From: Antedon mediterranea
Taxonomy: Eukaryota > Animalia > Echinodermata
Length of the DNA: 64,000 nucleotides
Direction: 5' to 3'
NCBI RefSeq assembly: GCF_964355755.1
Contig: NC_092671.1
Span: 1,674,001 to 1,738,000 of the forward strand
The position numbers were made by a program, and so were the translations under genes. Shown one piece after another: positions 3,681 to 22,838 of the stretch (positions within the stretch are counted from its first letter, which is position 1; each line of letters begins with the position of its first letter). Under the pieces are notes generated by a model. That model worked only from the letters and a program-made list of their open reading frames with translations, was not told the DNA's origin and did no database searches.

Positions 3681-4250
3681 CTTGAAAGAACAACAAAAGA
3701 CTGCGTCGTCGACGACACAATGGACTCTTCCAAATTGTGAATTTTGCGGGGGGATCATTGTTCACAAAACGTGTCATCAACTTGTACTTTATTTTTTAAA
3801 TGTATGATAAACAACGGATACTGCACATTTTCTGTTGCTGTCAATATTGCTGATTTCAATGATCAACATCCGTTTCTTTTGAATAGGGTGATTGCTACAC
3901 TCTGTCCATGTAGGTATTTAACGCACTGCCCCATGCTGTTACGTTACTATTGGGAGAATCCAGTATTCACACATCCATCAAGCATAAGTAACGTCGTAGT
4001 GTTAATGTTGCAATCATTTTGACCAATCACAGGTAATTGCCCCTCGCAGCAAATATCAAGCCAAGTTCTACAAGAAATCAACATATTCCAGTGGGAGTCG
4101 ACGACGACGTGAGATTGATGCAAACCGATTTATTTTGCGTTTAGTTTTCAACAAGTGCGTTTGCCAAACTATTTTGTTTGCCGTTCATTTACATACGCTC
4201 ATTTGAATTGCCTGTGTACAATTTTTCTATTTTTATCGACGTTTTTACAG

Positions 4251-4755
4251 ATGCCCAAAATAATGGAGTTATGTTTGCTTATTATTTTTGTTTTATCGTT
4301 TTTGGATGGACAATCGGTTGAGGCCCGTAGGTCACAAGAAGTTTACCAAAAATGTCAGCCAGTTACTATCCCGATGTGCGAGAACTTACCGTACAATATG
4401 ACGACATTCCCTAATTTTCTTAAACACCAGAGCCAAGAGGAGGCAGGCGCAGAAATTGCCCAATTTTTACCGCTCGTAAATGTTGAATGTTCCGAAGATT
4501 TGCGATTTTTTCTTTGTATGATGTACGCACCACCCTGTATCCAAAACTTTGTCATCCCCCCGTGTTTGAATCTTTGCGAACAAGCAAGGTATGGATGTGA
4601 AGTTCTTATGAATAGATTTGGGTTCAGTTGGCCAGAGCAACTATCATGCGACAAGTTCAAAGAAGCCGGCCCTGGTGTCCTTTGCATTGATCGTAATAGA
4701 ACTGATGATAATGTTTCTAAAAGACCTGCTCCAGTATTGACTACAATTGCTCCAG
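4251..4755 (+). CDS. Gene A coding exon 1: signal peptide + Frizzled-type CRD of a secreted sFRP-like (CRD+NTR) protein
   Basis: ATG 4251 lies directly after an acceptor-like ttttacag (alternative ATG 4263). Hydrophobic leader MELCLLIIFVLSFLDG, then a 10-Cys CRD (CQPVTIPMC...FLCMMYAPPC...GFSWPEQLSC...VLCIDRNRT). Ends at CAG|gtaag, phase 1 (505 nt). Confidence 0.93.
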
Positions 4756-5628
4756 GTAAGAATGTTTTTAGTTCATTATTATGAATACGATTAATAACAC
4801 GATTGACATACTTTTGTAATGTACACAGTGACGGGTGGGGTCATTTCACAAAGCTTTGTTTTACATTTCTATGCCTCTATCATTAAGTGTTACTAAATTT
4901 ACCAAGGGGGGTTAATTAGTACTAAATATAATGGTTTTATTTTCTATAATTTTCACAGCATTATAAGATATGTTAAAAATATCCTTTTCTATATTTTGTT
5001 TAACTGGTTTCATGTTTTGATATAAATTTTGTGGTTCCGTACACCACGTATAGTTCTGATCGAAGTTGATCGTCCTCAGGAGTTATTCTTTGTAGCCACT
5101 TTGCCATTCTTTTCACCAACAATAGTTAGTTATATTATTAAGTTTTTCATTTCCATAAGATATACAGTAAGCCAGCTAACTAAATCGTGCAATTTCTCGA
5201 TTTACCAAATTCCATCAATGTTCTTCAAGACTGTGATCACGTTTCATTCGCGTTTACAAAAGTTAATATAAAAGTGTTTCTTTATCAAATAAGTTTAGTC
5301 AGCAGAGCAGCTCACTTTATGTCAATCAGTTTCTTTGAAGACAGATCCAACTCACGTTCCATCTTGGTATGATGTCTTCACGTTCAAGGATGCACTTAAT
5401 CTGCATCTGTAGCAAGACATAATTATCTTTCAATATCATTTCCGATTTTGGCAATCTCCTAAGATGTACATGTAATAGGCCTAGTTGTTTTGTTGTAGAT
5501 GTAATCCCCGCCATTATCTATACGATTAAATGTCGTTTACTGGGGTAGGCTAACTTAATTTGTCTTCGGGTGAACTTTTAGATAAGTGCCGTATACTTCA
5601 GAATACATTTTCTATATTTTTTATACAG

Positions 5629-5697
5629 ATATTTTATGTGAACAAGAAATTAACGAGTCAACCAGATCAAAGAATTGCTCCCTGATCAAACCATTAG
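5629..5697 (+). CDS. Gene A candidate linker/cassette exon (DILCEQEINESTRSKNCSLIKPL)
   Basis: Acceptor ttttttatacag| and donor TAG|gtatga. 69 nt, phase 1-1, open in the frame set by the flanking exons. No counterpart in gene C. Confidence 0.55.
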
Positions 5698-6234
5698 GTA
5701 TGATAACGCATACAATTACGGTTTAATGGGAATAACATTTAAATATTAGGACCCCGTGTACGTTTATTGTTGTACCATTATATATAATTATATATATAAC
5801 ATTCTATAGGAATTTGTGTTGATGATTAACCTAACACATTATTAATAAAATACTACTGTGAAAAAAAAACCTTTAATATTTTTCTCTCTCTTTAAAATAA
5901 GTGTGTGGGGAATAATTCACAAATTAGTGGCCCAATTCAACAGTTCAGCTGAAGTTTGGTTCCCATATCGTACATGAAAATGAGGTCATATTAACATTCT
6001 TCATTAATGTATAATTAAATGATCCAGTAAGTTGTTGGTAAATTGAAACATTCTTCCGTTCTACCTGTACCGGTTTGTCTCAAAGGGACGTGCTGCTGAA
6101 TATCGGCACCTGTTGCCCAAGACAAGGTTTTAAAGGTTCACGCGTGTAAGGATAATTTCACTTGACAGCAATGGCAGTACTGTGATTTTTTAGTTTAGTG
6201 AAAAATACAATTTGAATACAGTACATTTATTGTC

Positions 6235-6480
6235 ATAATGCCTATACTACAGGAAACTATACAGACTCATATGCCTACTAATACTAGACTTCGGCCTACC
6301 ACCCTTGTTGTCATATGCCTATACTAATACCACAGACTAGGACCCATGTTTTCATCATATCGGCCTACTATACTATATACTTATGCCTACCCATGTTTTA
6401 TAGGACTCTAGTCTAATACTATACAAACTTAGGCCTTCCCATGTTGTAATGGGCCTACTAATACTAGACTATAGACTTAT
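6235..6480. repeat. Degenerate short tandem repeats
   Basis: Recurrent GCCTAC/TATACTAATACTAGACT/CCCATGTT motifs. Confidence 0.55.
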
Positions 6481-6712
6481 GTTCATGTAGACCAAGTTTT
6501 TTAATTGAAATTTGAATTTAATCCATCGCAAATTCTCTTAATTCGTCCTGTCATCAGATATCTCCTCGTCACATGATCATTAATCATATTATATACTGTA
6601 CGAGGAATGACCATCGTGAGTTATCATTGTATCATGGTTGTCATTTTGTATTATTGGAACAAGCCTTTCCTATCAAATATTCTCTAATAATTCCTTTGCA
6701 AGTTTCTTCCAT

Positions 6713-6808
6713 CGTCTTGGCCATTTCTCGTCTTGGTCATTTCTCGTCTTGGTCATTTCCCGTCTTGGCCATTTCTCGTCTTGGTCAGTTCTCGTCTTGG
6801 TCATTTCT
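6713..6808. repeat. 16-bp tandem repeat x6
   Basis: CGTCTTGGYCATTTCT, six consecutive units. Confidence 0.95.
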
Positions 6809-7971
6809 TTAGCCGAATCATATCAGTCCACTACAGGAAGTGTCCAATCATCTAAAGAATGTCCATCATTCTTAACTCCTTTGAGTCATCCCGCCATCTA
6901 AACCTGGCTTATTATTCTAGTGTAAAAACATTGATTGATTATAAAATTACATGGGTACACGGTGCAATTACATCTGTTAGAAACCGCCTTGTCGTACTCA
7001 CGAGATTTAGATGACGTTTTTAAAGGTTACTTACCACAAACTGGGACTTGTCCAAGTTCACTGGTAATAACCGCTTCAAGATTAATGTTGGAAAAATAAT
7101 CACTTTTTTTAATGTTGTCGTGCAGCACATGCCGCGTATCACATTTGGTTCGTTCCAACAATCAACACTTATTACTTTGAACAGGTGACTAATCGACCAG
7201 TTGTTATCCTCTAGTCAACATTTGCTAATGTTCTTCAATAATATTAAATCATATTTAATGTACTTGAAGGTCTAAACTTTAAACTGTATATGTAGGCCTA
7301 AATGGTATCCAAACTGACAAGAAACCGCTTGTTTTGGTACTATTGTACATTGGAATTGTGAATGGATAAAGATTTTAATCAATGTACGGTACCCATCCAT
7401 CCATTAATTCATCCATCCGTCTACCCATATCTAGTAACATCCATTCCATCTATCCGTCCATTTCACCACCACCACCCCCCCCCCCCCCCCGTCTGTCTGT
7501 TTGTCTGTCGATCTATCTATGACGTCAAATGAAAATCAGTTGTGTCATTGTATACCGTAGACTTAAATATCAGATTAAAAACTACCGTATCTAATTCCAA
7601 ATAAGTACTGTACTTATTTCTCCGTATTAATTCGTTTTACGTTAGCCCGTACCCATTAGGTGCCTTTCATTTTACTGTTTATGGATTAAGGTTTTCCTTT
7701 CATGGGTGTAATAGTATTATTTTGACCGGTACGTTTTGTATTAGAACTAAGTTGGGAATTACTGTTAGCCCTTGTGTTGTATTAAGATGACTTTTCAATT
7801 CCATTGACCATTTTGCCTTCCATGTATGAAATAAAGGAAATACCACTGTGATGATGTAAATCACAAACACTTATAAAACGTTAATTCATATAATAACTCA
7901 TTTTCCGTAACACCTCGGATTAAAAGACCAATTCTAAAAGACCAATTTTTAAAATAACTATTAGGCCTATT

Positions 7972-8303
7972 GTGCACCTAGAACACCTCCAGAAAGATTT
8001 CGAACGCATTGAGTCGGATGCCTCTCATCCTCTCCACAAAGTGATCATAGACCAACTTAATCCAAGTGGTAGATTGAGGCTCCTCAGTGTGAAAAACAAA
8101 TCGATATGCCAAATCCTTTATTCCCTCCGGTATCATACAACAGGAAGTCACGAAGATAATTTTATCTTGTATTTTTTTAGATGTTTTTATATGAATGGTT
8201 TTATGCTATATTTGTTTTTATTGTGTTTTCTTTGTTATTATCACGAGCAATGAATTTCCTTTTTGAGGATCAATAAAAGTTATCTTATCTTATCTTATCT
8301 TAT
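7972..8303 (+). mobile_element. 5'-truncated LINE 3' end (Rex1/Babar- or L2-like), frameshifted, in gene A intron
   Basis: IESDASHPLH...PSGRLR followed in another frame by RYAKSFIPSGI, typical of the C-terminus of CR1-group RT ORFs. Tail is GGATCAATAAAAG(TTATC)n. Confidence 0.75.
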
Positions 8304-10300
8304 ATCATAATACCAAAAACAAGTAATATCAATTTATCATTCATCATAATTGATCGACATCAAGATATGAGAACAAAATTAACAGAAATGTAGTAGAAAT
8401 GGGAGTTTAGGTTTATTTTTTATTAAACCTTCAATACAAAGTTATTTTTTTTTCATTTTTAAAACTAATCTGTAGTACCGATAGGATATCTCTATTATTG
8501 GCGAGTAATGTGTGTGAATTTGATAAGATCTTTTTGGCTGATTGAAATCCGTCAGCAGCATTCTGTAAGCGACAGACCAGTAAATATAAACACCTAGACA
8601 TTTAGATATTATTGAATCAAATGAACCAAATCTAAAGCTGTCTGATTTCAATCGAAATAGAAATAATAATAAATTGCTTTAAAAATTACGTATAATTAGC
8701 CTAATCTGATAATAGGATCAAGGTTAGAAAATAGAATGTCAGGAGGAGATATTTGCAAACATTTATGTTTAACTAACTTAGGCATGTTTGTTTGCTTGTC
8801 TAACCTATTCAGTTGCATTCATGTCTCTTCTCAGTATATAGGATTCTTTGACTAAGAATGGCGTTAAAATCCAGTTCAATTTGATAACATTTCCTATACG
8901 AAACGCAAACAATCTTGTAAACTAAACTCATTGGAGATGCACTTAAGTATCCATTGATACGGTACTTTTAATAGTACCTATAAACTTCAAAGGATACCGC
9001 TCCAAGGTGATACATTAAGCCGTCAGCCTTTAGGGGAAGGACCTATTTGACCAATTGTTTCAGGTGATAACATCATCTGGTGTAGTTACCTTACCGTCCC
9101 CAAAATTTTTCGCCAATTAATTTGAAATAACGCATCAGCGAAAATACTCTGATGCGACAGAATCAGATTGTTCTAAACTTTATCACCTTTTTTTCAAAAA
9201 CGTTAATTTCGGTTCAGTTGTTACTATTTGTTGTGGTCTGGGATTTGGCAGGTTTTTGGTAATAAAAGTAATTAATAGTACAGTGATCTAATCGGTATAG
9301 TAATCCGATGTCGTGTCCGAGTCCGGCGTGTTGTTTGATTGTTTTTTTTTTGTTATTTATCAGTTCCAAAAGAGTTGTAATTTTATTTTGGTAAAAGTCG
9401 CCACTCGTCTGTCCGACAGTGGATTTTGGCTGAACAAGTCCAGTGTTAGCTTAAGTATAATAGTTTTACTCACTGAGCAAATATTTCGACAATACGTCAT
9501 AGGTTTCTGTAATACGTGTCATAGAAACGTAACACAATGTTATGACCGTTTGAGCAGAATACTTAGTTTTATGCACATCTCAAATTGATCGTATAATATT
9601 CATTACAACATAATAAAACTATTACTAGCAAATAAAATTGACGTTTATAGATTTTAAACGGTCTTGTCAACTCGCGTAACTGTATCCTTTTAGTAAGCTG
9701 ATGCTACCACTCTTACTACCTGTATTTTCCTTTCGTATTCTATCCCACCCAGTGTGGTTAAAATCACCCCCTATAGCTCTGAGGTGAGAACAATTTGAGA
9801 CTGTGTTAGTATACCAAAGTTGGAAAGGGTGAAAAAAGGATCGTCTGTCATTCAAAATAGACAAACACAAACTAACACATCTTGAAGTTTAAAAGACCAC
9901 CGGCAGTGTTCATATTTCCATCGAATTACTGAAAATTGTAAAGAAAAAATAAATACACCTACTTTTTCAACCATATATAAACATTGCGTTTAATAGCAAG
10001 CCTAATATCATTATTATCATTATCATTCTGTTTTAGAATGATTACATTTTCTGTTCTTTAGTTAAACTTGTTTACTGCTGTGTCCCTTTTCCACTTATAT
10101 TTCTTTTCTTGCATTATATTAATAACATTTTCATTATTGGCTGTATTTTTATTTTGTTACTCTCTAGGCCCTATTTTGCGGAATTTGTGGAATTAAAGTT
10201 TATTATTATTATTATTCATTATCCTACGTACGTGTCTTTAAATTTAAGTTTGAGTTGATATTTATTCTTTACTTATTTTTTTCTTTTCTTTAACTTTCAG

Positions 10301-10387
10301 TTCCAGTTGACGATGTCACTTATTGCTTCGAATCTAGCGCTATTGTTTACGAAGATATTCTTTCTGAATTCTGCAAAGCACACTTTG
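10301..10387 (+). CDS. Gene A 87-nt exon: start of NTR domain (VPVDDVTYCFESSAIVYEDILSEFCKAHF)
   Basis: Long polypyrimidine tract ending ttcag|, donor TTG|gtaagt, phase 1-1. Same length as, and clearly similar to, exon 16789-16875 of gene C. Missed by the ORF track. Confidence 0.9.
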
Positions 10388-10466
10388 GTAAGTATTTATT
10401 TTACACTACATTAATTTAGATTTTATCAAACCATATCGCATAATTTTAAAATTCATTGGTACACAT

Positions 10467-10593
10467 AAAGCTAAAGCAACGCAAGAACATAAGCGCGCGC
10501 AATTTGACCAATCACGACGTATGGATCATCTAAACTGTCGCTTGTGATTGGTTAGCTTACCATGCGTTGCGCTTACGTGAGAACCAAGCTTAA
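10467..10593. mobile_element. Palindromic MITE family 1 copy
   Basis: GCAACGCA...TGACCAATCAC...GTGATTGGTTA...TGCGTTGC...GAACCAAGCTT. Related copies at ~17140, ~19520, ~30125 and ~51715. Confidence 0.7.
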
Positions 10594-11964
10594 GCCGCTC
10601 AATGCATCGTATCAATATTCGTGAGTCACTTTTCGTCAGACCGGATCTTAGATTTTGGGAAACGTATAAGGCTAAAATCGATTGTTAAAAGAAAGGGTTT
10701 CATTTTCTTCCTGTCTTAGGCATATAGAATAAAAAGATACGGTATGTGTGTCTCCCTGTTACCATGATAGATGTACAAAAGATAACTTCAGTCACAGCAG
10801 CTGCGGAAATCTCCCAGGCTTTGTTTTATATTCCATCTTTTTACCTGCTATCATTAATACCCGTACATATCGTTTTTCTAGGCTTATAAACTCCAATCAA
10901 TCAAGGGTGAAAATACCGGTACTGGTTAAACACCTGGCCTATACCCATGTGCCCTCAACTAACTTGGGGCTCAATAACCTTAACTGGTTTATGAACCTGG
11001 TTTAAGGACTTGCTTGAATTCCCTCCAGTGCAGCAGAACATAATTATAAAGATGATGCATTTCCGTGTTTTCTACATTTATGAACGATTATGTCAGATGG
11101 CTAGGTTGCTTTTCATGTCAAAGCAAAATTAAATTATTTAGAATCAAAACTCAGGCTTAAAAACAGCACTGAACTCAGTGTTGGCACGAAACGCAGAAAA
11201 CTGCTACAGTAGTCCTCTTTTTAACTATTCAGATAAACTTACATTAATTTATCAAATTAAGCAATATGATCACATACGGTACAACAAAATTAATAAATTT
11301 ACTGTATAGCGCCCTCATGCGTTAAAAAACTTTATAGAAGGACACGTTTTAATTTGAACCAATTACGGACCATCGTTTTTATGATTTTTTTTTTATTTTA
11401 TGACTAATACATTCTGATGTTTTAGCACGTTTTAAATGTCGATTACTATCGGTGATCTCATAAAATAATTTCTAATAAAACTGTTTTAAAATTACATCAC
11501 TATCAATTTTCTTCGACCCACTTTACGGTATTACAAGCATTACCGTAACTCAAGGCCCATAAAAATCATTCCCTAATATATTAAATTCCAATGGGTTCAA
11601 ATAGAGAAGCAAAAGGGGGATAGAGTTGATATTCTTTGTCTTATTAAATTGTATTGACAAATGAAAAACAAACGGCAGATTCAGGAAGTTGGCTGTTGGC
11701 GAGATCACATTTAATTGTTTACTATCTCGATTAAATGCCAGGGTACCTCTAAATCTTCTAACAGGGGACTTGATTAGCGCGTTTTTACTCCTTTCTTCTT
11801 GTGAACTTAAAATGCGGGTTAGCGTAATGGAATGAACGGAGAAAGTATGGCACGCTTTTTATGCCTTACCAATATCCTTTTCTAGATTTGACACTTTTTT
11901 AAATTGGTATTTTCCGCATTTGTGAAGTCATTTATTGATGATTTCTTTTCTTGTTTACTTTCAG

Positions 11965-12266
11965 TAATGAAGATCCGTCTAGAATCTATTTCAAGCACAG
12001 TTCAAGAAACATCGTACCAAGCTAACGATCGAAAACGTGAAATATATAAACGCGATGGTCTGAAGAAACGCGATTTGAAGGCGATGTTGTTCCACATGCG
12101 CAACAGCGCAGCACCTGAATGTTGCAACGTTATGAAGCCAGGCGAAGAGTTTCTTGTTATGGGTTACAAAGACAATAAAAGGCTGATCATCAGCTCTGTA
12201 TTCGCCTGGACACGATCCAGAGACTTCAGACAGACCATTAGAAAATTTGTAGATTTAGACTGCTGA
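11965..12266 (+). CDS. Gene A terminal exon: NTR (netrin C-terminal/C345C) domain, sFRP1/2/5-like
   Basis: Acceptor ctttcag|, phase 1. VMKIRL...IYKRDGLKKRDLK...ECC...FLVMGYK...LIISSVFAW...LDC-stop. Spliced product is 297 aa (320 aa with the 69-nt exon). AATAAA motifs follow at ~12373, ~12404 and ~12673. Confidence 0.9.
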
Positions 12267-14482
12267 TCGTGATTATTAAAAAAAAGTAGACGGTTGTTGA
12301 GAACCGGCGGCGAACCATTGGTTTATTTATGAAACGCATAACATGCACAAAAACGCGTCATACAATCTCGATAATAAATTGTGACGCGTTATCTATTACG
12401 AAAAATAAAAATGTATATTATCAAGGGTGTTAGTATCAGTATTAATTATTAAAACGTGGGTAGAAATATTTTTTGACTATTTACGATGTTTCGATCACCA
12501 TTAAATATAATGCACATCTATATTAATATTATAAGAGATAGCGTGTGTATGTTCGTTATACATTTGGAATGGTCCTACTAGATTTAAAACCGCCTGGGTG
12601 GTTATCTTTCCTCGAAATGAAAGAGTCTACAATCTTACTCGCTCGAGTTGATATTTATCTTGATTTAAATTGAATAAAAAGCAAGGCTAACATTAATTCA
12701 ATTAATACATTGTATGATAATATCTTGAATCTTTTTGTGGGAATTTTATGATAGAAATGATAACGTTATTAACTTTTCAAGAGCGAAAGAGGGCGCTGTG
12801 TATATTGTGAATTGGAAATATACTGTTTTCAGAGGGAGACATAAAACACGTACCTATTAGGCCTAATACAAAATGGTTTGACAATTAAAATTTGTCCTAT
12901 TTTACTGTTATCTTCCATATAAATAGCCGTGATGTACAGAATTAAGTAGTTTAATTAACATTTTATTGAATATTTAACACTATATTCGATGTTTTATATT
13001 AAATTTATTTTTTTAGAAATTATAACACAATATGAAAGATATATTGTAAAGCATAAACCCCAGTAAAAATTGCTTGAGACAGATTCCGAATGGCGCCCTC
13101 AACATCTTTCGTATATTTTTTTCCCCGTCATTTTTATATTATTAGCCTACTCATCATTATCGTAGACTTTACTGCAAATAAACAATATATTTCGTTAAAA
13201 AGATTGTTTTAAAGAAAAGTTTGTTAATTTCTTTCCCAATGATTTGAAATATAAAGAAAAAATAACGTGATGTTTTCCGTGACTTATATCCGGGTTGTAT
13301 ATAAACTACTGGCCAAATAGGTAACATTATTTCTTAAAATTTGTACAAATTCGTATATTTTAAAGTTGTTGTTCATTAATTTGAATTAAACATAGGTTTC
13401 GTACACGTATCATACGTAATGCGTTGTTTTTATATCATTACGTTTTCCCCTCGTTAATCGTTTACATGTGTGTAATTGTCCGCGATACCATAAAATGATT
13501 AACTTTGGAAAATTTCTACTTAGCACAATGAATAGCTTTACCCCTGGTGAAGTGACTTTCGTTTTTTGTAAACACGTATGCCTCATATGCAATGTTCAGT
13601 TAAGAAACATAGGATTTGAGTAAAAATATAATCTTACTCCTCTCTCGAAATTAGACGGTGACGTAACTTAGTAAGTATGTAGGCTTAGAAACTTTAGGAC
13701 TTATCCTCCCTCGTAGATACACCTAGAGACCTATAAGGCTCACAAACCTATTAGTAGTCCTGTAGTATACTACTACTAGGCCAAGCAAGAGTAGTGTGTG
13801 TGTATGAAACGTATTCAGGAAGTTGTCTGTATTTTCAAAGAGCAAATCAACCGTAAATATATACTTTTTATTGAAAGTGAACATCAAAAGAATGCCGTCT
13901 GGTGGCGGTATATCAAAAGACACCGAATTATTTAATACCTGCTGCCCTAGCTTTCTAGTCCGTTGAATGCGTACAATACAAACGGCTGTAAAAGACATTT
14001 CACGCGGTAAAGATGAGCTGTGAATTGACAGTAACTAATTTAGTACCATAAGTGTTCAAATGCACCCTTTTTATCATCAAAACAAGAAAAAAAATGTCCA
14101 TATTAAAGAAAAATTAATGTTAAAATAAATATTATTAAAACGAGGGAAGAGCGATTCAGGGGAAAAAACATAGCGCCATCAACGTTTTGAAACTTACAGT
14201 AGAGTCGAGCCGAAATTATAAGGCGTGACGTATTGACACTACATTTATGTACAGTAATACTCTTTTCAACTATGGTAATTGTGTACCATATAGAGATATC
14301 ATTCTCATCTCTGCGTGTATGTATCTGTATTATGAATCTGAACGTTTTCCACGATAATACAATATTATAAAAAAACAACTACAGGAAAAATAGCAGGTTA
14401 ATTGCACCCGCATCAACCTGTACCAATGCTCTGTATCTTTAATAGCTTCCTAGTTCCGTCAAAATAGATGGAAGAAACTCAG

Positions 14483-14490
14483 TATATAAA
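14483..14490 (+). promoter_or_regulatory. Candidate TATA box of gene B
   Basis: TATATAAA(G) about 97 nt upstream of ATG 14580, with an Inr-like TCAC ~28 nt downstream. Confidence 0.55.
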
Positions 14491-14579
14491 GTAGGAATAA
14501 ATACTTTATTTCACATTTCCAAAGCGTCAGTTTTGTAACAAGAGTGTACGGTCTGTTGAGATACAGTAGGCCATTCAAA

Positions 14580-15047
14580 ATGACGATTCCTTCAAATGGA
14601 AAGATGATAATGTTTGCTTTTATCATTTGGATGTTCGCCGATACGACGATGGCACAGACTTCATTATATGGAAGTCATACTCAAAACCCTAATGCCACAC
14701 AATGTGAAAACATCACAGTTTCCATCTGTCAGAGCCAGCTATACAACACTACGATTCTTCCAAATTTGTTAAATCACACAAGTCAGAATGAAGCAGCTTT
14801 GGTGTTGACTACCTTCTATCCTCTAATATTGGTTGAATGTTCGCCAGATCTTCAGGATTTCCTGTGTGCGATGTATCTACCTCCCTGCACGGACACTTGC
14901 TATGTTACACCACCATGCAAGTCACTTTGTCAAAGTTCGAAAAATGGTTGTCAAGATATTATGGATAATTTCGGTTTTACTTGGCCGGATGAACTTGACT
15001 GCAACCGCTTTCCCGAGCAAACCCAGAGTGTATGTATCGATGGCTAA
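14580..15047 (+). CDS. Gene B: intronless secreted Frizzled CRD-only protein (~155 aa)
   Basis: ATG 14580 (or 14604), signal peptide MIMFAFIIWMFADTTMA, complete 10-Cys CRD plus one extra Cys. TAA follows three residues after C10. TATA box upstream and AATAAA at 15185-15190. Confidence 0.88.
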   Translation: MTIPSNGKMIMFAFIIWMFADTTMAQTSLYGSHTQNPNATQCENITVSICQSQLYNTTILPNLLNHTSQNEAALVLTTFYPLILVECSPDLQDFLCAMYLPPCTDTCYVTPPCKSLCQSSKNGCQDIMDNFGFTWPDELDCNRFPEQTQSVCIDG

Positions 15048-16005
15048 GACGGAGTTAGGCCTTATTACCACAACCACCACTAACATAATCTACCGACAGT
15101 ATACATCATCATTAAGGTGACAACGAAGTCCATCGATGACCGCAACCTGTTAGTGGCGGTTTCGTCGCTGTTGGTTGTGAACTGAATAAAACAAACATTC
15201 ATTTTGTTTCAACGCATACTATATTGTGTAATTTAAAATCGAAGTAATGTTGAAAGTATACTGTGTATTCAATTTGTAATTAAACGATCTATACTCAATA
15301 TTTTGAATAGTCATGTATTTTTAGTGCGTTGCTCGTTCCAGTAAGCCTAACTTAACACTTAGCTTATTCCTGGTATGGTGGTACCGAAGGTAAGTTAGCT
15401 TACATGCCATCAATATCATCGAAATCTTGTGGAAGAGCGTTTATACAAGTACTCCTTTTAATGGTATATTCGATCTGCGTCAGACTCAATTTAGAGTCTT
15501 GTTTGGAGACAGTCTTTTATTTGCGTTCCACATTTATTTATCTATTTTTATAATGAATACTGGCCAGTTTAGATTATAATGCTATCGGATATCAGTACAT
15601 CTTTCATCCTCGGTTCAGAGATTAGAAACATAATTTTAACTAAACTAAACAAAGTAAACTAAATCAGTCCGGATAGCAACATAATTATCTCCCCATATGT
15701 TTATAACTTACAGAAGTAAAAACATGGGATCTATAAATCTAATTTATAGGTCCATGGTACATGATAACACCAGATGACATCGTCTTATGACGATTGTTGT
15801 AGACCGGATATGTTACTGTCTTAATTCTTGTTGTAGGAAGTAGGCCTAGTAATCGATTCCTTATCCTGCATCAAAAGTTGACCTGAGACGACGGAAATGC
15901 ATGGAACAATCAAGTAATGAAACTATTGTATCAACCCGTCACTTCCATCGTGTGTACAGTGTGGAGTGGTTGCTTTGTAGACAAGTTTACAGTTTTTATT
16001 TCATC

Positions 16006-16594
16006 ATGGGTTCCTCATATCTCTATTCCTTCATTCTGATACTATTCCATATACTGACGTTGGTAGACGGGAGCGTGGAAGTTGATCCTACTGAAGAATC
16101 AGACGTCATGACTACCATTGAGCCTCGTTTTGGCAAATACAAACCACCAAACTACCACCAGATACCGGATTGGTACGTTAAAGATAAATGTGAGCCAGTA
16201 ACTGTTCCCTTGTGTAAAGACAGGTTGTATAACTTTACGATTGTACCCAACCTCTTGGATCATGACTCCCAAGATGACGCCGGTTTAGAAGCCCATCAAT
16301 TCTACCCACTTGTTAAAGTCGGATGTTCGGAATATTTACAAGATTTTCTGTGTTCGATGTACGCTCCTCCTTGTACTGTGCTTGAGTACGCTCTTCCTCC
16401 GTGTAAGTCGTTGTGTAAGCGCGCCAGAGCTGACTGCGAAGGTCTTATGAACAGATACGGATTCAAATGGCCCACCAAACTTGACTGTAAATACTTCCCA
16501 AAGGATGGTCTATGCATGGGTGTGGAGAACCTGAAGAGCACCACCACCGAGCCGCTTATGGATCAAACAACGCAGGCTACTGAACCAACACCAA
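16006..16594 (+). CDS. Gene C coding exon 1: signal peptide, N-terminal extension, Fz1/2/7-type CRD, Thr/Pro-rich linker
   Basis: ATG in good context (atcATGG), leader [25 protein letters not shown] contains [14 protein letters not shown] and [11 protein letters not shown]. Donor CAA|gtaagt, phase 1 (589 nt). Confidence 0.93.
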
Positions 16595-16788
16595 GTAAGT
16601 CTATATGGGCACATCACATGAAGTTTGACAGTTTATATTAAATAGGCGTTTTATTACCAACAGCAGCGTACGTACGGTACGTCAAATATTTTTGACCAAT
16701 CACAAACGTCGGACGCGTTGTGCTGTCATCTTCAAAATAATCCGTTGTCTATTTACTTATTATAACTTATTATGTATATGTTTTACAG

Positions 16789-16875
16789 TGTCACGTGATA
16801 ACTCAACATTCTGTTATGAATCTCTTGATGGAAGAAAAGACGATCTCAAGCAGCAATTCTGTGGAGCAGATTTTG
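16789..16875 (+). CDS. Gene C 87-nt exon: start of NTR (MSRDNSTFCYESLDGRKDDLKQQFCGADF)
   Basis: Acceptor ttttacag|, donor TTG|gtaagt, phase 1-1. Paralogous to 10301-10387. Confidence 0.9.
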
Positions 16876-16940
16876 GTAAGTTTCATTTCCGGTTTCCGGC
16901 AATAGTAAAAGTAGTCCACTAAATCCAAACTAACCAGCCC

Positions 16941-17107
16941 CTATTTACCCTTTATATACTATTTACCCTTTATATACTATTTACCCTTTATATAGGCCTA
17001 CTATTTCCCCTATACTATTTACCCTTTATATACTATTTACCCTTTATATACTATTTACCCTTTATATACTATTTACCCTTTATATACTATTTACCCTTTA
17101 TATACTG
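16941..17107. repeat. 18-bp tandem repeat, ~9 copies
   Basis: CTATTTACCCTTTATATA units in gene C intron 2. Confidence 0.95.
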
Positions 17108-17139
17108 TACTATTTATTGTCATATGTTTATTGTTGTTA

Positions 17140-17328
17140 CTGTCGCCTGTGATTGGTTAACTCTCTTGCGTTTCGCTTACCTCCAGTAAGAACCTAGCAT
17201 ACGGGCGTACGTGCAACGGAAGTCAGTTGACAAATCACAGTTCGGATAATCAATTGTCTGCGATTGGTCACATTACTTGTGTTGCGCAGGTACGTCATCG
17301 CTTGCGTCCTGGGATTGAACCAACATTA
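17140..17328. mobile_element. MITE family 1: one half copy plus one near-complete copy
   Basis: CTGTCGCCTGTGATTGGTTAAC...TTGCG...GAACC, then GTTGACAAATCAC...GATTGGTCA...GTTGCGC...GAACCAA. Confidence 0.65.
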
Positions 17329-17363
17329 AATGTAGTAATATCTCCTAACTTGTTTTAATATAG

Positions 17364-17659
17364 TTATGAAGGTTAGACTAGAGGAGGTAGCCAATACACT
17401 GGACGGTACAACGTACTTGATAAGTGGAAGACGACGCACGCTTTATAAAACGCATGGTTTGATCAAACGCGATTTGAAGACATTGCGACTCAATGCAAAG
17501 GACGTAGTAGCTGCAGAATGTTGCCATGTTGTGAAGCCGGGTGAGGATTATCTTATACTGGGCTATAAGAATGGAAAGAAACTTGTCATTAAAACTATTT
17601 ACGCATGGTCAAAGGGAATTAGAAATCTGGTAAAGAATTTCGATGGGGTACAATGCTAA
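17364..17659 (+). CDS. Gene C terminal exon: NTR domain, sFRP1/2/5-like
   Basis: Acceptor atatag|, phase 1. VMKVRL...LYKTHGLIKRDLK...ECC...YLILGYK...LVIKTIYAW...VQC-stop. Spliced product is 323 aa. AATAAA at 17851. Confidence 0.9.
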
Positions 17660-19517
17660 ACAGCAGAGTGCATATTCTCACTTCAATTAAAGATAACTTT
17701 AATAGGACTACTTTTATTTTAAATGTTGTCGAAATATTTCTAAACCTAAATATGTTGTCATTTAACCTTTTAATTGTGAACATGAATAAGTGTTTTCATT
17801 TTAAACAGTTATGTAAATGTTTTAGTATTATGTATCCATTAATTTTGTATAATAAATCATCACAAATGTTGAATACTTTCGTTAAAATCAATTCTAGCTA
17901 GCAAACCGTTATGCGCGTGCGTCCCTTTTTTCATGTTCATGATGCCTTTGTAATAAAACAATGGAATGGAATTTTAAAGACGAACGTATTTATACGAAAG
18001 AAAAAACACTTGTCCGGCCGGCCGTCAACAAATATGCCTGTTTATTGATCTTCAAAATGATATACTTTCCTAGTAAGAATAAAAACTGATTAATATTAAA
18101 CTTTAGCCTGGAGATGTTGTGTTAATCATCAGTGTACAATGCATTGGAACCCGAGTAGGCGTACACGGAGACAGGTGGATTATTCGCGACAAATATTCGC
18201 TCTTTTGTTGCGCGCCATTTGTGAACACGGCAGACAACATGTTTTCAGCCTCGTTCAAAGAACAGTTCTTTCCTGTTGTGTAACGACCTGAAAGTAAATC
18301 AAATTACCAAATGACGTTTCATGCATAAGTATAGATGATTAAGAACAATCAAATGTTCCGCTGTGTTGCAGTTCTATATTGGTTTGTAAATGTTTTGTTA
18401 TATTTTTCTGTTCAGCTAATTATAGGCTACGATATGACTTTGAAATGTAGGTCTAGGTATATTAATTCGACTTATAAGAAACCCCACTATGTTAGGCCTG
18501 AGACACACAGTAATTTCAGGATGTATCGTAGGTATGTAGTCCTAATGATAATTGTAGTATACTTCTCAGTATTCCTGTTGTATCCCTCATAAAATGGGAA
18601 TTATCAGAATACCCGTCCGTCCCCCATCTTGTCGCTCGCTTACAAATTAATTTTCCCCGTACAGTTACAATGTAGGAAGTCCTCTATAGTGTGGTTCTTA
18701 TGACTAAAATGGCTAAATTAATACTTTTCAATTTCTGTATTATAATGACGGAACAATTTGGTCCATTAGGTCTTTTCTATTTATTGTTCTTGTCCAAAAC
18801 AATTCTGTATTTTCTCGTATTATCGGCTTTCTACAAATCCAGGTTTAAACCTATTGCTCTCCGACAACAATGTTGCTACAGTATTCATAAATAAAATGAA
18901 GTTCCTAAACGGTTAGACAGTGTTAGAACTCAAACTATTTCAAAGGAATAAGTAAGGCATAATATTTTTTATAGAATAAAAGCATCAAAGAATGACCGAT
19001 AATTTCAAAGACGCCGCATTATTATGGTACATGCAGTAGCTTTCTAGTCTGCTGAGCGCGTACAAACCGGGGTTTGTAGAGACTGTTGCAATTCACGCAA
19101 TTCAGTTCCGGTTTACGAACTTTTATGAATAGTATTAGTTCGCTCCACCCCCGGAGAATTCAGTTTTTTCACTGCACAGTGAGGTGTTTTGTTTGTACCC
19201 TATCGATAGTAGTGTACTTCTATTGTCGATAATTGTGTTTTAATTCCCGGCATAATGCGTTAAATTTGTCAGATGAAATGACAATAGATAATTTGATAGA
19301 TTCGACGGTTTAATAATTATGTTTTTGAAAATGCCGTCGTTTCGTTTGATCTTAATAATTGGTATCACCATCGATGTCTCTAATAATCGATACATGTTGC
19401 ATCTTGTTTTTACTTATGACCATTCATTTAAGAGAAACTATATTTTTGCAGAATATTGAAGTACATCAATAAAGAGGAAAAACACGAGATTGTCCTGTCT
19501 TTACTGTTTTATTATTT

Positions 19518-19666
19518 TAAGTTTTTTCGCAACGAAAGGACGTAAGCGCGCAACGCAATCGAGTTGACTAATCAAACGCGATTGATTATTTAAACTGTCG
19601 CGTTGATTGATCAACTCACGTGCGTTGCACAAGTTACTACGTCGTTAAAGTTCGAACCAAGATTTA
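19518..19666. mobile_element. MITE family 1 copy
   Basis: GCAACGCAATCGAGTTGACTAATCAA...TTGATTGATCAACTC...TGCGTTGC...GAACCAAG inverted structure. Confidence 0.7.
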
Positions 19667-21113
19667 ATCCATTTATTTATTTTTGTTATTAAACCTTGTT
19701 TAAAGAGGGTAACCCTAAAACAGCATATGCTGACAATCAATGCAACAATAATATTTTACTTTATTTTTTTCTGCGTTATTAAGAAATTAGCAGAAAAAAC
19801 CGTTTGCCAATTAATTTTTAGTGAATCTTTAAGAGATATTTACGCAATAGGCAATTGTCAAGTTGATAGGAATTGCAATCAAGGCGATATACTGATTGGG
19901 CTTCCGTGGTTAACTTCAGGACTCATAGCTGTATGAAATCAAAAGAATTTATACAAAATTAACATACTTAATTAAAGTTATGTATAAAGTGGTTAAATAA
20001 AGTTATAAATGACAATAAGAGGATAACAAATTTTGACATAGCGCCCTCTATTTTAAAAGTTCTTTAATCACAGTGCTGCTGTTGTATCAGTACTGTCCGA
20101 ACAAAACATATTACCTACTGGTTCTGCTATGTAGATTCAAGTTATATATCAAATATATCATATTAAAAAGTTAAAGATAAAATATTTTGTTTCGAATTAG
20201 TTTACAAACAAACATTCCAATACAATCTTTGCATACAAACAAAAATGGAAATGGAAAGAATGTCACCTATAAACACTTATTTGACCTTTTAATCATGTTA
20301 AAGTATGTATTTTTAAATGAAAGTTGTTTTTTAAAAACCCTGTTTTTAGCAAGAAATATTGTTTTAAATTGTCTAAATTAAATGTATGTTACGCTGTATT
20401 CCAATACGAATGTTTTATTCTAGTTGATTTCATGCAAACCAACCAGCTTGCCATAAAAAGTAAACAATTCCGAGTACTGGTACATTCTAAAAAAAAAAAT
20501 TATGATTTATTAGTTAATTTCAATCTTATTGATTGTTTACATTTTTACTGGCATACTTATGTCACCGTTTCACGTTTCAATAAAACGTCTGAAATGCGCC
20601 TATAAATTTGCAAAGTAAACATTTTACACGTCACGTGGTAGATTATATGGCTACCGATTGGTCAATTTACGATTAAAGCTTAATCAGTAGTTTCTCAGAC
20701 CTTTTATATTTAAAACAACAAACAAGATTAATTTCAAATAATTTTGGCAAAAAAATAATTGATATATAATAATATATATAATAATTATAAGATGTAATGT
20801 TTTATTATTTTAAATATGACTTAGTTTAGTCGTTTTTGCTATAAATTTGCAGACACCCCTGTGGAGATTTAGAAACTGCTGTGACGTAACTCAGTTGCAG
20901 TCTATTCACTGTGTCAACTGAGCAAGTGTTTGGCGACAAAGCGTGAACTTAGGCTTGCTGATGGTTGTGGCTTATATTACGAGGAGTATATTTTGATCAC
21001 AAATTTAGTCAAGAATTAATGTTTATGCTCTAAAGTTAACAAAATACAATTACTGGATACATTTTGAAGCTCGTGTGGATTGCCTTGTGAAGGTAAATAA
21101 ACCAACAACAACC

Positions 21114-22838
21114 ATGTTCTGCAGAGAAGATCATGTGAAAAACCGAAGGTGGGTGAAACCGCTCTCTGTTCTTGTTTTGTCGCTGTTGTTGCACTGTACA
21201 ACGGCGCAGGTACATGGTCCATACGGGAATAATGGCGGAGGTGATACTTATTCGAAGCCTAGGTGCGAAGCAATCACAATTCCACTGTGTCATCAGCTTC
21301 CATATAACACCACAATTTCACCAAATTTGTTGAATCAAAACCAAGAAGATGCTGGTTTAGAAGTACATCAATTTTATCCGCTCGTAAAAGTCGAATGTTC
21401 TGTGGATTTAAAATACTTTTTGTGTTCGATGTATGCACCTCCATGTACAATGGTGGATTTTGCGATACCTCCATGTAAATCGTTATGTCAAAGTGCGAGG
21501 AATGGATGCGAAGCTTTGATGAACAGATTTGGTTTCCAATGGCCTGATAAACTTGACTGTGATTTGTTTCCCGAACAACGACCTGGAATTTTATGTGTTG
21601 ACCGAAATCGAACAACGCACCCAATTGACAATGATGGTAATGGTGGAAAGACTATAACGACAAAGTCTCCAGAAAATGTTGTGACATCAACTCCCGCAAT
21701 TCACAAAGAAGATATTCCATTTACATGTCCAAAAGAATTCACAGTTCCTGAGAAAGATGAAGAATTTTTGGGATCAAAAAATTGTGGAGCCCCGTGTCCA
21801 ATGTTTTTTACAGACCCTGCTCAACAAAAGTTTGCCAGGCTTTGGATTGGTATTTGGGCGTTTATTTGTGCCGGATCGTCTTTATTTACTTTCATGACAT
21901 TTGTGATAGACACTAAAAGGTTTAGGTATCCTGAACGTCCAATTATTTTTCTTTCTGGGTGTTACTTTATGATTGCTGTTGTATACATTGTTGGATTTTT
22001 TATGGACGATGAAATAGCTTGTAATCAGCCTTCATCTGAGGACGTACATCGAGAGGCAACTCTGACGCAAGGTGCCAAGAAAGAGATGTGTACGATTCTA
22101 TTTATGGTTTTGTACTACTTCACGATGGCATCTTCTATTTGGTGGGTGTTGTTGAGTCTCACATGGTTCTTGGCTGCCGGTTTGAAATGGGGTCATGAGG
22201 CTATCGAGAGAAATTCCCAATATTTTCACGTTGCTGCTTGGTCTATTCCTGCTGTAAAGACAATTGTAATTCTTACGATGGGTGAGGTCGACGGTGACCC
22301 TCTCAGCGGTGTTTGTTTCACTGGTGGTACGAACATTGCCGCACTACGAGGATTTGTACTTGCCCCTCTTATCATCTATCTAATCATAGGAACATTCTTT
22401 TTAATAACCGGATTTATCGCTTTGTGTCGTATAAGGACTTTTATGAAGCACGAAAATACGAAAACAGACAAGTTGGAAAAATTAATGTTTCGTATTGGAA
22501 TTTTCACTGTACTATACACTGTTCCAGCCACTGTTGTAGTAGCCTGCTATATTTATGAGCAAAACTTTAGGGCTCAGTGGGAGTTACGTTGGCTCTCGGA
22601 CAATTGTTTAAAATACAGTGTGGTCTGTCCGCATCTAGATGGGTTATTACCCGAAGCCTCTCAGGGTCAAAGGCCGAACTTCACTGTTTTTATGGTTAAA
22701 TATTTAATGTTAGTGGTTGTTGGCATTACCAGTGGTTTTTGGATTTGGTCTGGGAAGACCCTTCAATCGTGGATAAACTTTTATTATAAATTGTGTTCGA
22801 GGAGAAGATCCGTTCCGAAGAAACCTTCAGAAGTTTAA
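21114..22838 (+). CDS. fzd1/2/7: Frizzled-1/2/7-class Wnt receptor, intronless, ~574 aa
   Basis: First in-frame ATG (accATG) at 21114, signal peptide, CRD with [14 protein letters not shown] (1/2/7-type, not the 5/8-type HQFWPLVEI). Also [30 protein letters not shown], seven TM segments, Dishevelled-binding KTLQSW and a C-terminal class I PDZ-binding SEV. Confidence 0.97.

Follow-up and report, generated by a model that had tools for sequence, protein, structure and literature searches.

A crinoid gene array beside Frizzled-1/2/7: probable CRD replacement on an sFRP1/2/5 scaffold

How should a gene be classified whose first exon resembles a Frizzled receptor and whose remaining exons resemble an sFRP, or secreted Frizzled-related protein? 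The question is raised by two genes, here called A and C, in a stretch of 64,000 nucleotides from the crinoid Antedon mediterranea (GCF_964355755.1, contig NC_092671.1, positions 1,674,001 to 1,738,000 of the forward strand; this whole stretch is the window, and positions below are counted from its first letter). Each combines a Frizzled-type cysteine-rich domain (CRD) with a C-terminal netrin-like (NTR) domain, and both lie upstream of a Frizzled-1/2/7 (Fz1/2/7) gene. Our analysis indicates that A and C were probably formed by CRD replacement on an sFRP1/2/5 scaffold by the adjacent Fz1/2/7, which would make them a third, lineage-made type of sFRP and predicted secreted Wnt modulators.

The array consists of four units on one strand, gene A, open reading frame (ORF) B, gene C, and an intronless Frizzled-1/2/7, with the following features (X1 is a sequencing run described below):

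3872..4755, + strand: gene A exon 1; about 379 nt of 5' untranslated region (UTR), then coding sequence from 4251 to 4755 for a signal peptide, an Fz1/2/7-type CRD and a Pro/Thr linker; phase-1 donor
10301..10387, + strand: gene A exon 2; 87 nt, the NTR start with two Cys, ending in the FCxxxF motif; both joints in an X1 contig
11965..12266, + strand: gene A exon 3, coding part; remainder of the NTR and stop codon; contig unspliced on to 15140
14580..15047, + strand: ORF B; single exon, 155 aa, signal peptide and Fz1/2/7-type CRD with one extra Cys, without an NTR
16006..16594, + strand: gene C exon 1, coding part; signal peptide, N-terminal extension, Fz1/2/7-type CRD and Thr/Pro linker; phase-1 donor
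16789..16875, + strand: gene C exon 2; 87 nt, the NTR start; both joints in an X1 contig
17364..17659, + strand: gene C exon 3, coding part; remainder of the NTR and stop codon; contig continues past the stop to about 18120, with AATAAA at 18078
21114..22838, + strand: Frizzled-1/2/7; intronless, 574 aa, Pfam Fz and Frizzled; separate X1 contig from 20928

A previous, sequence-only reading of this DNA had proposed that genes A and C share a three-exon, phase-1 layout with an 87-nt middle exon. The exons were found at the positions it gave, all four introns are GT..AG and of phase 1, and the open reading frames yield products of 297 aa (A) and 323 aa (C). The intronless Fz1/2/7 at 21114-22838 and the CRD-only ORF B at 14580-15047 go beyond that reading. 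The start of Fz1/2/7 lies 3455 bases from the stop of gene C, and its CRD region is 94% identical to the 'Frizzled1/2/7' of Himerometra. The Pfam Fz domain was detected in the first exons of gene A (E 2e-32) and gene C (E 1e-30) and also in B, while the last exons of A and C, scored as exon 3 alone, reach 21.1 and 18.3 bits for Pfam NTR, just below the curated cut-off of 21.9. An 18-nt tandem array occupies 16941-17106, within the second intron of gene C.

Five sequencing runs cover the window, none of them recorded as RNA, and their contigs were compared over 4000-23200. Run X1 was treated as RNA because of its GT..AG joints. The X1 contigs contain all four joints that had been predicted to splice the CRD exons to the NTR exons (4755/10301, 10387/11965, 16594/16789, and 16875/17364), each of them GT..AG, and the DNA-like runs X2 and X5 contain none of the four. 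The contig of gene A begins at 3872, at a depth of 127 versus 0.2 to 17 in neighbouring bins, and no joint in the X1 contigs connects gene A, ORF B, gene C, or Fz1/2/7 to one another. Past the stop of gene A this contig extends for a further 2.9 kb (12267-15140), across six AATAAA sites and over the whole of ORF B, which may therefore be part of the 3' UTR of gene A or have an overlapping transcript of its own. Upstream of gene A, X1 contigs at a depth of 8 to 14 cover 1-1730 of the window and may be background DNA or a weak transcript.

The CRDs of the array have the features of a receptor. The spacing of their first two cysteines is C1-x7-C2 in A, B, and C, versus C1-x9-C2 in 21 of 21 sFRP1/2/5 CRDs, and an NXT sequon, described as a trait of Fz and sFRP3/4 (PMC4669655), follows C2 in A, B, C, and Fz and is absent from the canonical Antedon sFRP. 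In comparisons with solved structures, the Antedon A CRD scored highest with Frizzled-7 (161 bits; Fz8, up to 155; sFRP3, 107; Sizzled, 66), the Antedon C CRD with Frizzled-2 (172 bits; Frizzled-8, 132; sFRP3, 91; Sizzled, 66), the ORF B CRD with Frizzled-7 (129 bits; Frizzled-8, 119; sFRP3, 92; Sizzled, 68), and the A-type CRD of another crinoid, Anneissia japonica, with Fz1/2/7 (149 bits; Fz8, 136; sFRP3, 96; Sizzled, 75). Fz1/2/7 was top-ranked for all four CRDs tried, and in the control the canonical Antedon sFRP ranked Sizzled at the top.

Word-based homologue searches gave 2 matches among 21 candidates, 2 among 242, and, in the third, 571 among 628 (120 listed); this third search returned Fz1/2/7 and multi-CRD proteins, with no usable Fz5/8, Fz4, Fz9/10, or sFRP3/4 among the matches listed. 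The CRD tree comprised 58 rows: 5 from the array, 3 crinoid Fz, 29 other Fz1/2/7 from the 120 listed matches, and 21 sFRP1/2/5 drawn from the 31 CRD-bearing matches of an NTR search, one of them swapped for a named cluster member. In the maximum-likelihood (ML) tree, the five array CRDs and the three crinoid Fz form one branch (98/93*) nested within the echinoderm Fz1/2/7 (98/96*). Approximately unbiased (AU) tests were run on 38 of the 58 rows under LG+G4, with 20 rows dropped for speed and one repeat on all 58 rows under a mixture model. They rejected the grouping of the array CRDs with the Antedon sFRP (p=1e-55) and with echinoderm sFRPs (p=3e-7), by which plain paralogy with sFRP1/2/5 is rejected, and they also rejected a placement outside Fz1/2/7 for A alone (p=0.005) and for Antedon C alone (p=0.019).

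These results make it likely that the CRDs of A and C were copied from the adjacent Fz1/2/7, the presumptive donor of their signal and CRD exons. Within Antedon the CRDs are 60 to 66% identical to that of Fz1/2/7. At synonymous positions A, B, C, and Fz have reached saturation or come close to it (pS 0.71-0.81), and upstream of their ATGs similarity has faded to an insignificant level (one 16-nt match in six pairs); the breakpoints are therefore unreadable in Antedon. ORF B, with a pS of 0.71 and a pN of 0.27 against Fz, has kept its frame, its ten Cys, and its hydrophobic N-terminus, and is the longest branch of the CRD tree (0.81). Several frizzled-type CRDs occur in 46 of the 120 listed CRD-search proteins, from teleosts, decapods, oysters, amphioxus, and an acorn worm, and one teleost model (P0135) has a signal and CRD copy immediately before fzd7, like ORF B. 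Local copying of the receptor's 5' end may thus be common.

The NTR exons, by comparison, are closest to sFRP1/2/5. A three-sequence NTR profile searched against 1.84e9 representatives gave 76 matches, of which 75 lie outside the array, and all 75 are sFRP1/2/5-type, 31 of 31 by a CRD part that is closer to sFRP1/2/5 than to Fz1/2/7 references and 44 of 44 by BLAST to those. The top full-length matches are echinoderm and hemichordate genes, the best outside the array being Antedon's own canonical sFRP1/2/5 (XP_071956452; P0006), to which hhalign aligns the array NTR with a probability of 98.9 and 35% identity. Several unnamed sFRP1/2/5-type proteins (P0014, P0019, P0029, P0065, and P0072) match the profile twice and so have tandem NTR domains.

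Two NTR trees were built, one of 41 rows (45 of the 75 matches spanned the domain, 37 were left after removal of near copies, and 4 array rows were added) and one of 39 rows, in which 6 rows were dropped and 4 exon-3 fragments added. Both recover the array as one long branch (100/99-100*), and within it the NTRs of Antedon C and Anneissia C pair (97/94* and 97/91*). In both ML trees the array and echinoderm sFRP1/5 come together with a support of 86/78, not starred, and a sister relationship of the array to Antedon's own sFRP was not rejected (AU p=0.43). The pairing of the Antedon A and Antedon C NTRs was rejected (AU p=5e-4), and the split between A and C therefore predates that between Antedon and Anneissia.

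The cysteines and the exon boundaries of the NTR also bear on its source. The array NTRs have five Cys, one of them possibly unpaired, and not the six of sFRP1/2/5, which begin with CxxC. Of the 41 rows, 32, the hemichordate included, have the first Cys of this CxxC; the 4 array rows and 3 echinoderm sFRP1/5 rows do not, and the other two rows without it have no CRD and are fragment-like. The echinoderm sFRP1/5 NTRs without it (P0006, P0012, and P0082) are left with an odd number of Cys. In 15 hand-picked sFRP1/2/5 fragment matches, homology ends exactly at the FCxxxF junction, where one model directly joins a CRD exon, and two partial Diadema models break at the boundary of exons 1 and 2. These fragment boundaries indicate indirectly that sFRP1/2/5 has the same two intron positions as A and C; three exons have been reported for sFRP1/2/5 and six for sFRP3/4 (PMC8417734). 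Taken with the sequence matches, this makes it likely that the NTR tail was taken from an ordinary sFRP1/2/5 gene. AlphaFold folds both domains (mean pLDDT, 83.6 and 83.4), and among Atlas structure rows sFRP5-like clusters stand at the top for the NTR (TM 0.74-0.78), versus 0.67-0.69 for WFIKKN-like, PCOLCE, ADAMTSL5, TIMP, and netrin. The Foldseek E-values are all alike, and the fold searches support an NTR fold and do not separate NTR families; a search of the NTR profile against the sequences of solved structures returned complement C4 alone (E 0.39).

The sequence-only reading had described a Frizzled-like CRD unlike that of sFRP1/2/5 joined to an sFRP1/2/5-like NTR, and both descriptions hold, the CRD motifs being as it gave them. 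The incongruence that it anticipated between separate trees was recovered, with the CRD placed with Fz1/2/7, the NTR nearest sFRP1/2/5, and the congruent placement rejected; a canonical sFRP1/2/5, which it had suggested looking for, is retained on a contig other than that of the array (XP_071956452). Of its further proposal, an additional class created by exon shuffling or CRD replacement, the independent derivation applies just to the CRD; the NTR exons and both intron positions appear to be inherited from sFRP1/2/5, which speaks for CRD replacement and not for the fusion of a CRD with an unrelated netrin domain. The duplication that it placed after this event agrees with the rejected pairing of the two Antedon NTRs.

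Anneissia japonica has both the A and the C type, so that the array is found in two comatulid genera. The last exon of gene A is 100% identical to the Antedon NCBI model XP_071943703 (1460 aa), which fuses all four units, and 78% identical to Anneissia XP_033113836 (303 aa, Fz and NTR, A type); between the A genes of the two species, identity is 90% in the CRD and 76% in the NTR. The second Anneissia model, XP_033113757 (907 aa), was the first match of the NTR profile and has a CRD and NTR unit of C type fused to a complete Fz1/2/7. Together the two Anneissia models suggest the same array. In both crinoids, then, NCBI models (1460 and 907 aa) join secreted genes to Fz1/2/7 across stop codons.

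Comparison with Anneissia also points to a second event. The Anneissia C CRD is identical at 103 of 111 positions to Anneissia Fz1/2/7, at 100 of 111 to the Antedon Fz, at 98 of 111 to the Himerometra Fz, and at 66 of 108 to Antedon C; the signal region, too, has been copied from Fz1/2/7 (28 of 41). Of the 58 CRDs, 4 have lost a residue between C2 and C3, those of the three crinoid receptors and Anneissia C, and this deletion is absent in Antedon A, B, and C, in Anneissia A, and in the 29 other Fz1/2/7 rows. By a reading of the site table, Anneissia C has 5 residues in common with the Anneissia Fz alone, versus 2 sites at which it sides with another crinoid receptor, and the pairing of the Antedon C and Anneissia C CRDs was rejected (AU p=0.026). 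It is therefore likely that the Anneissia C CRD was captured a second time, the old CRD copies predating the deletion and exon 1 of C having been overwritten later.

A sequence of events can be proposed on this basis. In a crinoid ancestor, a duplicate of sFRP1/2/5, or only its exons 2 and 3, would have been placed upstream of Fz1/2/7, and its CRD exon would have given way to a copy, made locally, of the 5' end of the receptor. The chimera would then have duplicated, giving A and C before the Antedon and Anneissia lineages diverged, with B a further CRD copy without an NTR. Subsequently the crinoid Fz1/2/7 would have lost one residue between C2 and C3, and in the Anneissia lineage receptor sequence would once more have overwritten the first exon of C, through gene conversion or through a new duplication. 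The chances seem slightly better than even that the array represents a recurring swap, in which gene conversion from the receptor refreshes the Wnt-binding exon of a decoy and the antagonist stays matched to its receptor, and with it a third rebuild of the sFRP architecture.

Several observations weigh against CRD replacement by the neighbouring receptor as the origin of A and C. The old CRDs (Antedon A, B, and C and Anneissia A), held together outside Fz1/2/7, were not rejected (p-AU 0.165 on 38 rows and 0.256 on 58 rows), and the CRD tree has no Fz5/8, Fz4, Fz9/10, or sFRP3/4 sequences in it. A clade of crinoid receptors without Anneissia C was likewise not rejected (AU p=0.13), so that dating the second copy to after the Anneissia split depends on a support of 99/88 and a few shared residues. 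For the NTR, the array branch is long (1.05-1.08), the AU tests left five of seven constrained placements unrejected, and the tree has no other NTR family as a root. The NTR model is closest among solved structures to TIMP-3, C3, and PCOLCE1 (Z 11.0-11.4, with TIMP-3 at 11.4; rmsd, 2.6-3.5; 103-116 residues aligned), and Sizzled is lower (Z 9.2; rmsd, 3.5; 100 aligned); Atlas features of C exon 3 rank an ADAMTSL5 fragment at the top and are otherwise those of a generic NTR. The splicing evidence comes from one run, whose contigs are no proof of single transcripts, and the Anneissia genes are known as NCBI protein models alone. As for the predicted function, the array NTRs are just mildly basic (A has 22 K+R versus 19 D+E).

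It would be unlikely, given all of the above, that the same chimera is older, with a CRD copied before the crinoids split from other echinoderms, or taken from either a stem Fz1/2/7 or a different Fz subfamily, and then lost elsewhere, the array NTR being sister to all echinoderm sFRP1/5. The unrejected placement of the old CRDs outside Fz1/2/7 fits such an age, as does the 39-row NTR tree, in which the echinoderm sFRP1/5 NTRs branch without the array (95/83*), so that the array is sister to all of them and not to the Antedon gene alone. Yet the ML CRD tree joins the old CRDs to crinoid Fz at 98/93*, a position outside Fz1/2/7 is rejected for A by itself and for Antedon C by itself, the array and the Antedon sFRP remain acceptable as NTR sisters (p=0.43), and no non-crinoid protein with a Fz-type CRD and an NTR was found in the 75 NTR matches or the 120 listed CRD matches. 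Quite improbable is a fully independent third fusion of an Fz1/2/7 CRD with the NTR of another or unsampled family, whose likeness to sFRP1/2/5 would be long-branch convergence. The nearest sFRP1/2/5 NTR is only 30 to 33% identical, neither Sizzled nor sFRP stands out in the fold and feature searches, and the netrin domain has been called saturated and phylogenetically unreliable (PMC3516229); against this explanation stand the 75 of 75 profile matches of sFRP1/2/5 type with echinoderm and hemichordate genes as the top full-length ones, the agreement of the intron positions, and the loss of one Cys common to the array and echinoderm sFRP1/5. The NCBI models imply a single long receptor, of 1460 aa in Antedon and 907 aa in Anneissia, in which several CRD and NTR domains precede the membrane region of Frizzled, and in the models of both species a C-type gene is indeed merged with the receptor at a comparable position. 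However, a hydrophobic N-terminus and an in-frame stop of its own are present in every unit, and the X1 contigs continue past the stops of A and C without splicing, that of C ends near an AATAAA, and none has a joint to B, C, or Fz. The fused receptor is largely refuted by these stops and by the lack of joints between units in X1, and we consider it very improbable. Least probable of all is that A and C are divergent sFRP3/4 paralogues, an identity to which the sequence-only reading had already found a poor fit. It is true that published trees place the sFRP3/4 CRDs with Fz5/8 and Fz1/2/7, that these CRDs have the NXT sequon (PMC3516229, PMC4669655), and that our trees were built without them, but the sFRP3 CRD scores fall well below those of Fz1/2/7 (107 versus 161 bits for A and 91 versus 172 for C), A and C have three exons and not six, their NTR start lacks the CxC given as an sFRP3/4 mark in PMC4669655, and no sFRP3/4-type protein is among the 75 NTR matches. 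By CRD score, exon number, and NTR start, this identity was rejected.

Frizzled CRDs bind lipidated Wnt, and an NTR perhaps adds matrix binding. Among the solved-structure matches of the array CRDs was the Wnt8-Fz8 complex (4F0A). The products of A and C are predicted to be secreted; each has one hydrophobic N-terminal stretch, none later, and its own in-frame stop. By analogy with known sFRPs they may modulate Wnt signalling. The CRD would bind lipidated Wnt with a receptor-like preference, or pair with Fz CRDs, and the NTR would add Wnt or matrix binding, so that local signalling between Wnt and Fz1/2/7 would be damped or reshaped. If the origin by CRD replacement is accepted, we lean toward decoy-type antagonism as the function. 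It is possible, but not what we would expect, that the products instead serve to disperse or present Wnt, or that they affect Fz1/2/7 through the pairing of CRDs, and that B is an untranslated passenger in the 3' UTR of A. In Sfrp1, the NTR binds Wnt8, and the CRD has Fz and not Wnt8 as its partner (PMC2542364), the diffusion of Wnt can be increased by sFRPs (bioRxiv 10.64898/2026.07.29.741434), and B lies downstream of the A stop in one contig and has the longest CRD branch. On the other hand, the CRDs are of receptor type and not of Sfrp1 type, so that direct Wnt binding would be the simpler expectation for them, and B retains its frame, ten Cys, and hydrophobic N-terminus in spite of nearly saturated synonymous sites.

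In architecture, A and C fit the sFRPs, with a signal peptide, a 10-Cys Fz-type CRD, and a C-terminal domain of NTR-like fold (Z 9-11), without a membrane region. They resemble sFRP1/2/5 (including Sizzled and Antedon XP_071956452) in having signal, CRD, and NTR in three coding exons with boundaries following the CRD linker and FCxxxF, in having the nearest NTR by sequence, and in the five-Cys NTR known from echinoderm sFRP1/5, and differ from them in the Fz1/2/7-type CRD (x7 spacing, NXT sequon, and receptor motifs), in adjoining Fz1/2/7, and in having the third and fourth NTR Cys adjacent (CC, not CxC). The sFRP3/4 family (FrzB) likewise combines a signal and a frizzled-like CRD with an NTR, and a separate origin from a frizzled CRD has been published for it (PMC3516229). 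In contrast, A and C have three exons instead of six, an sFRP1/2/5-type NTR, and a CRD far closer to Fz1/2/7; they were seen here in crinoids only and are recent enough for the donor to be still adjacent. From Frizzled-1/2/7 itself, with CRD identities of 60 to 66% in Antedon and 103 of 111 in Anneissia C, they differ in the absence of the seven-pass membrane region and in a CRD exon spliced to NTR exons, the receptor being intronless. Lineage-specific secreted CRD proteins have been described in the sea urchin, whose sFRP-1 has four CRDs and an Ig domain (Khadka et al., PMC5778778), and in Platynereis (fzCRD-1 to -3; Bastin et al., PMC4669655). These are also new secreted proteins from a duplicated frizzled-type CRD, and ORF B is of this kind; unlike A and C, which rebuild the full CRD and NTR combination, they have no full NTR and are tied to sFRP3/4 or unplaced. 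None of the 120 listed CRD-search proteins, the 46 multi-CRD ones included, has an NTR, the two crinoid array records being outside that set.

The accepted picture is one of four frizzleds and two sFRPs, the latter by separate ancient fusions, although the tests could not reject a single origin (PMC3516229); Leclere and Rentzsch proposed gene fusion after duplication of the donor as the mechanism of the two independent sFRP origins (PMC3516229). The array would add a further CRD and NTR combination that stands beside its likely donor, can be dated against a one-residue deletion in the receptor, and seemingly arose twice in one array, so that the proposed way of capturing a domain can be tested directly in crinoid genomes. 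If this is correct, it is a readable, repeated instance of the capture process proposed for the ancient sFRP families. The array also adds two or three unannotated genes, predicted to encode secreted Wnt-pathway proteins, in the crinoids, the sister lineage to the rest of the living echinoderms. The A and C genes have escaped notice, since the NCBI models either merge them with the receptor or call them 'frizzled-7-like', and trees based on the CRD only would place them among the Fz1/2/7 paralogues. In the available text of the literature searched, including PMC11336682, PMC11758999, PMC12126913, PMC8417734, and bioRxiv 10.64898/2026.07.29.741434, no description of these crinoid genes was found; the gene tables of crinoid genome papers could list the models.

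Elsewhere in the window, none of the other ORFs of at least 90 codons between 25000 and 64000 appeared gene-like on inspection by eye, and Rfam gave no matches over the 64 kb. Short repeats with very high depth in the DNA-like runs lie at about 7850-8490, 10500-10550, 15140-15195, 17140-17240, and 19550-19720, and some of them are related to one another by joints.

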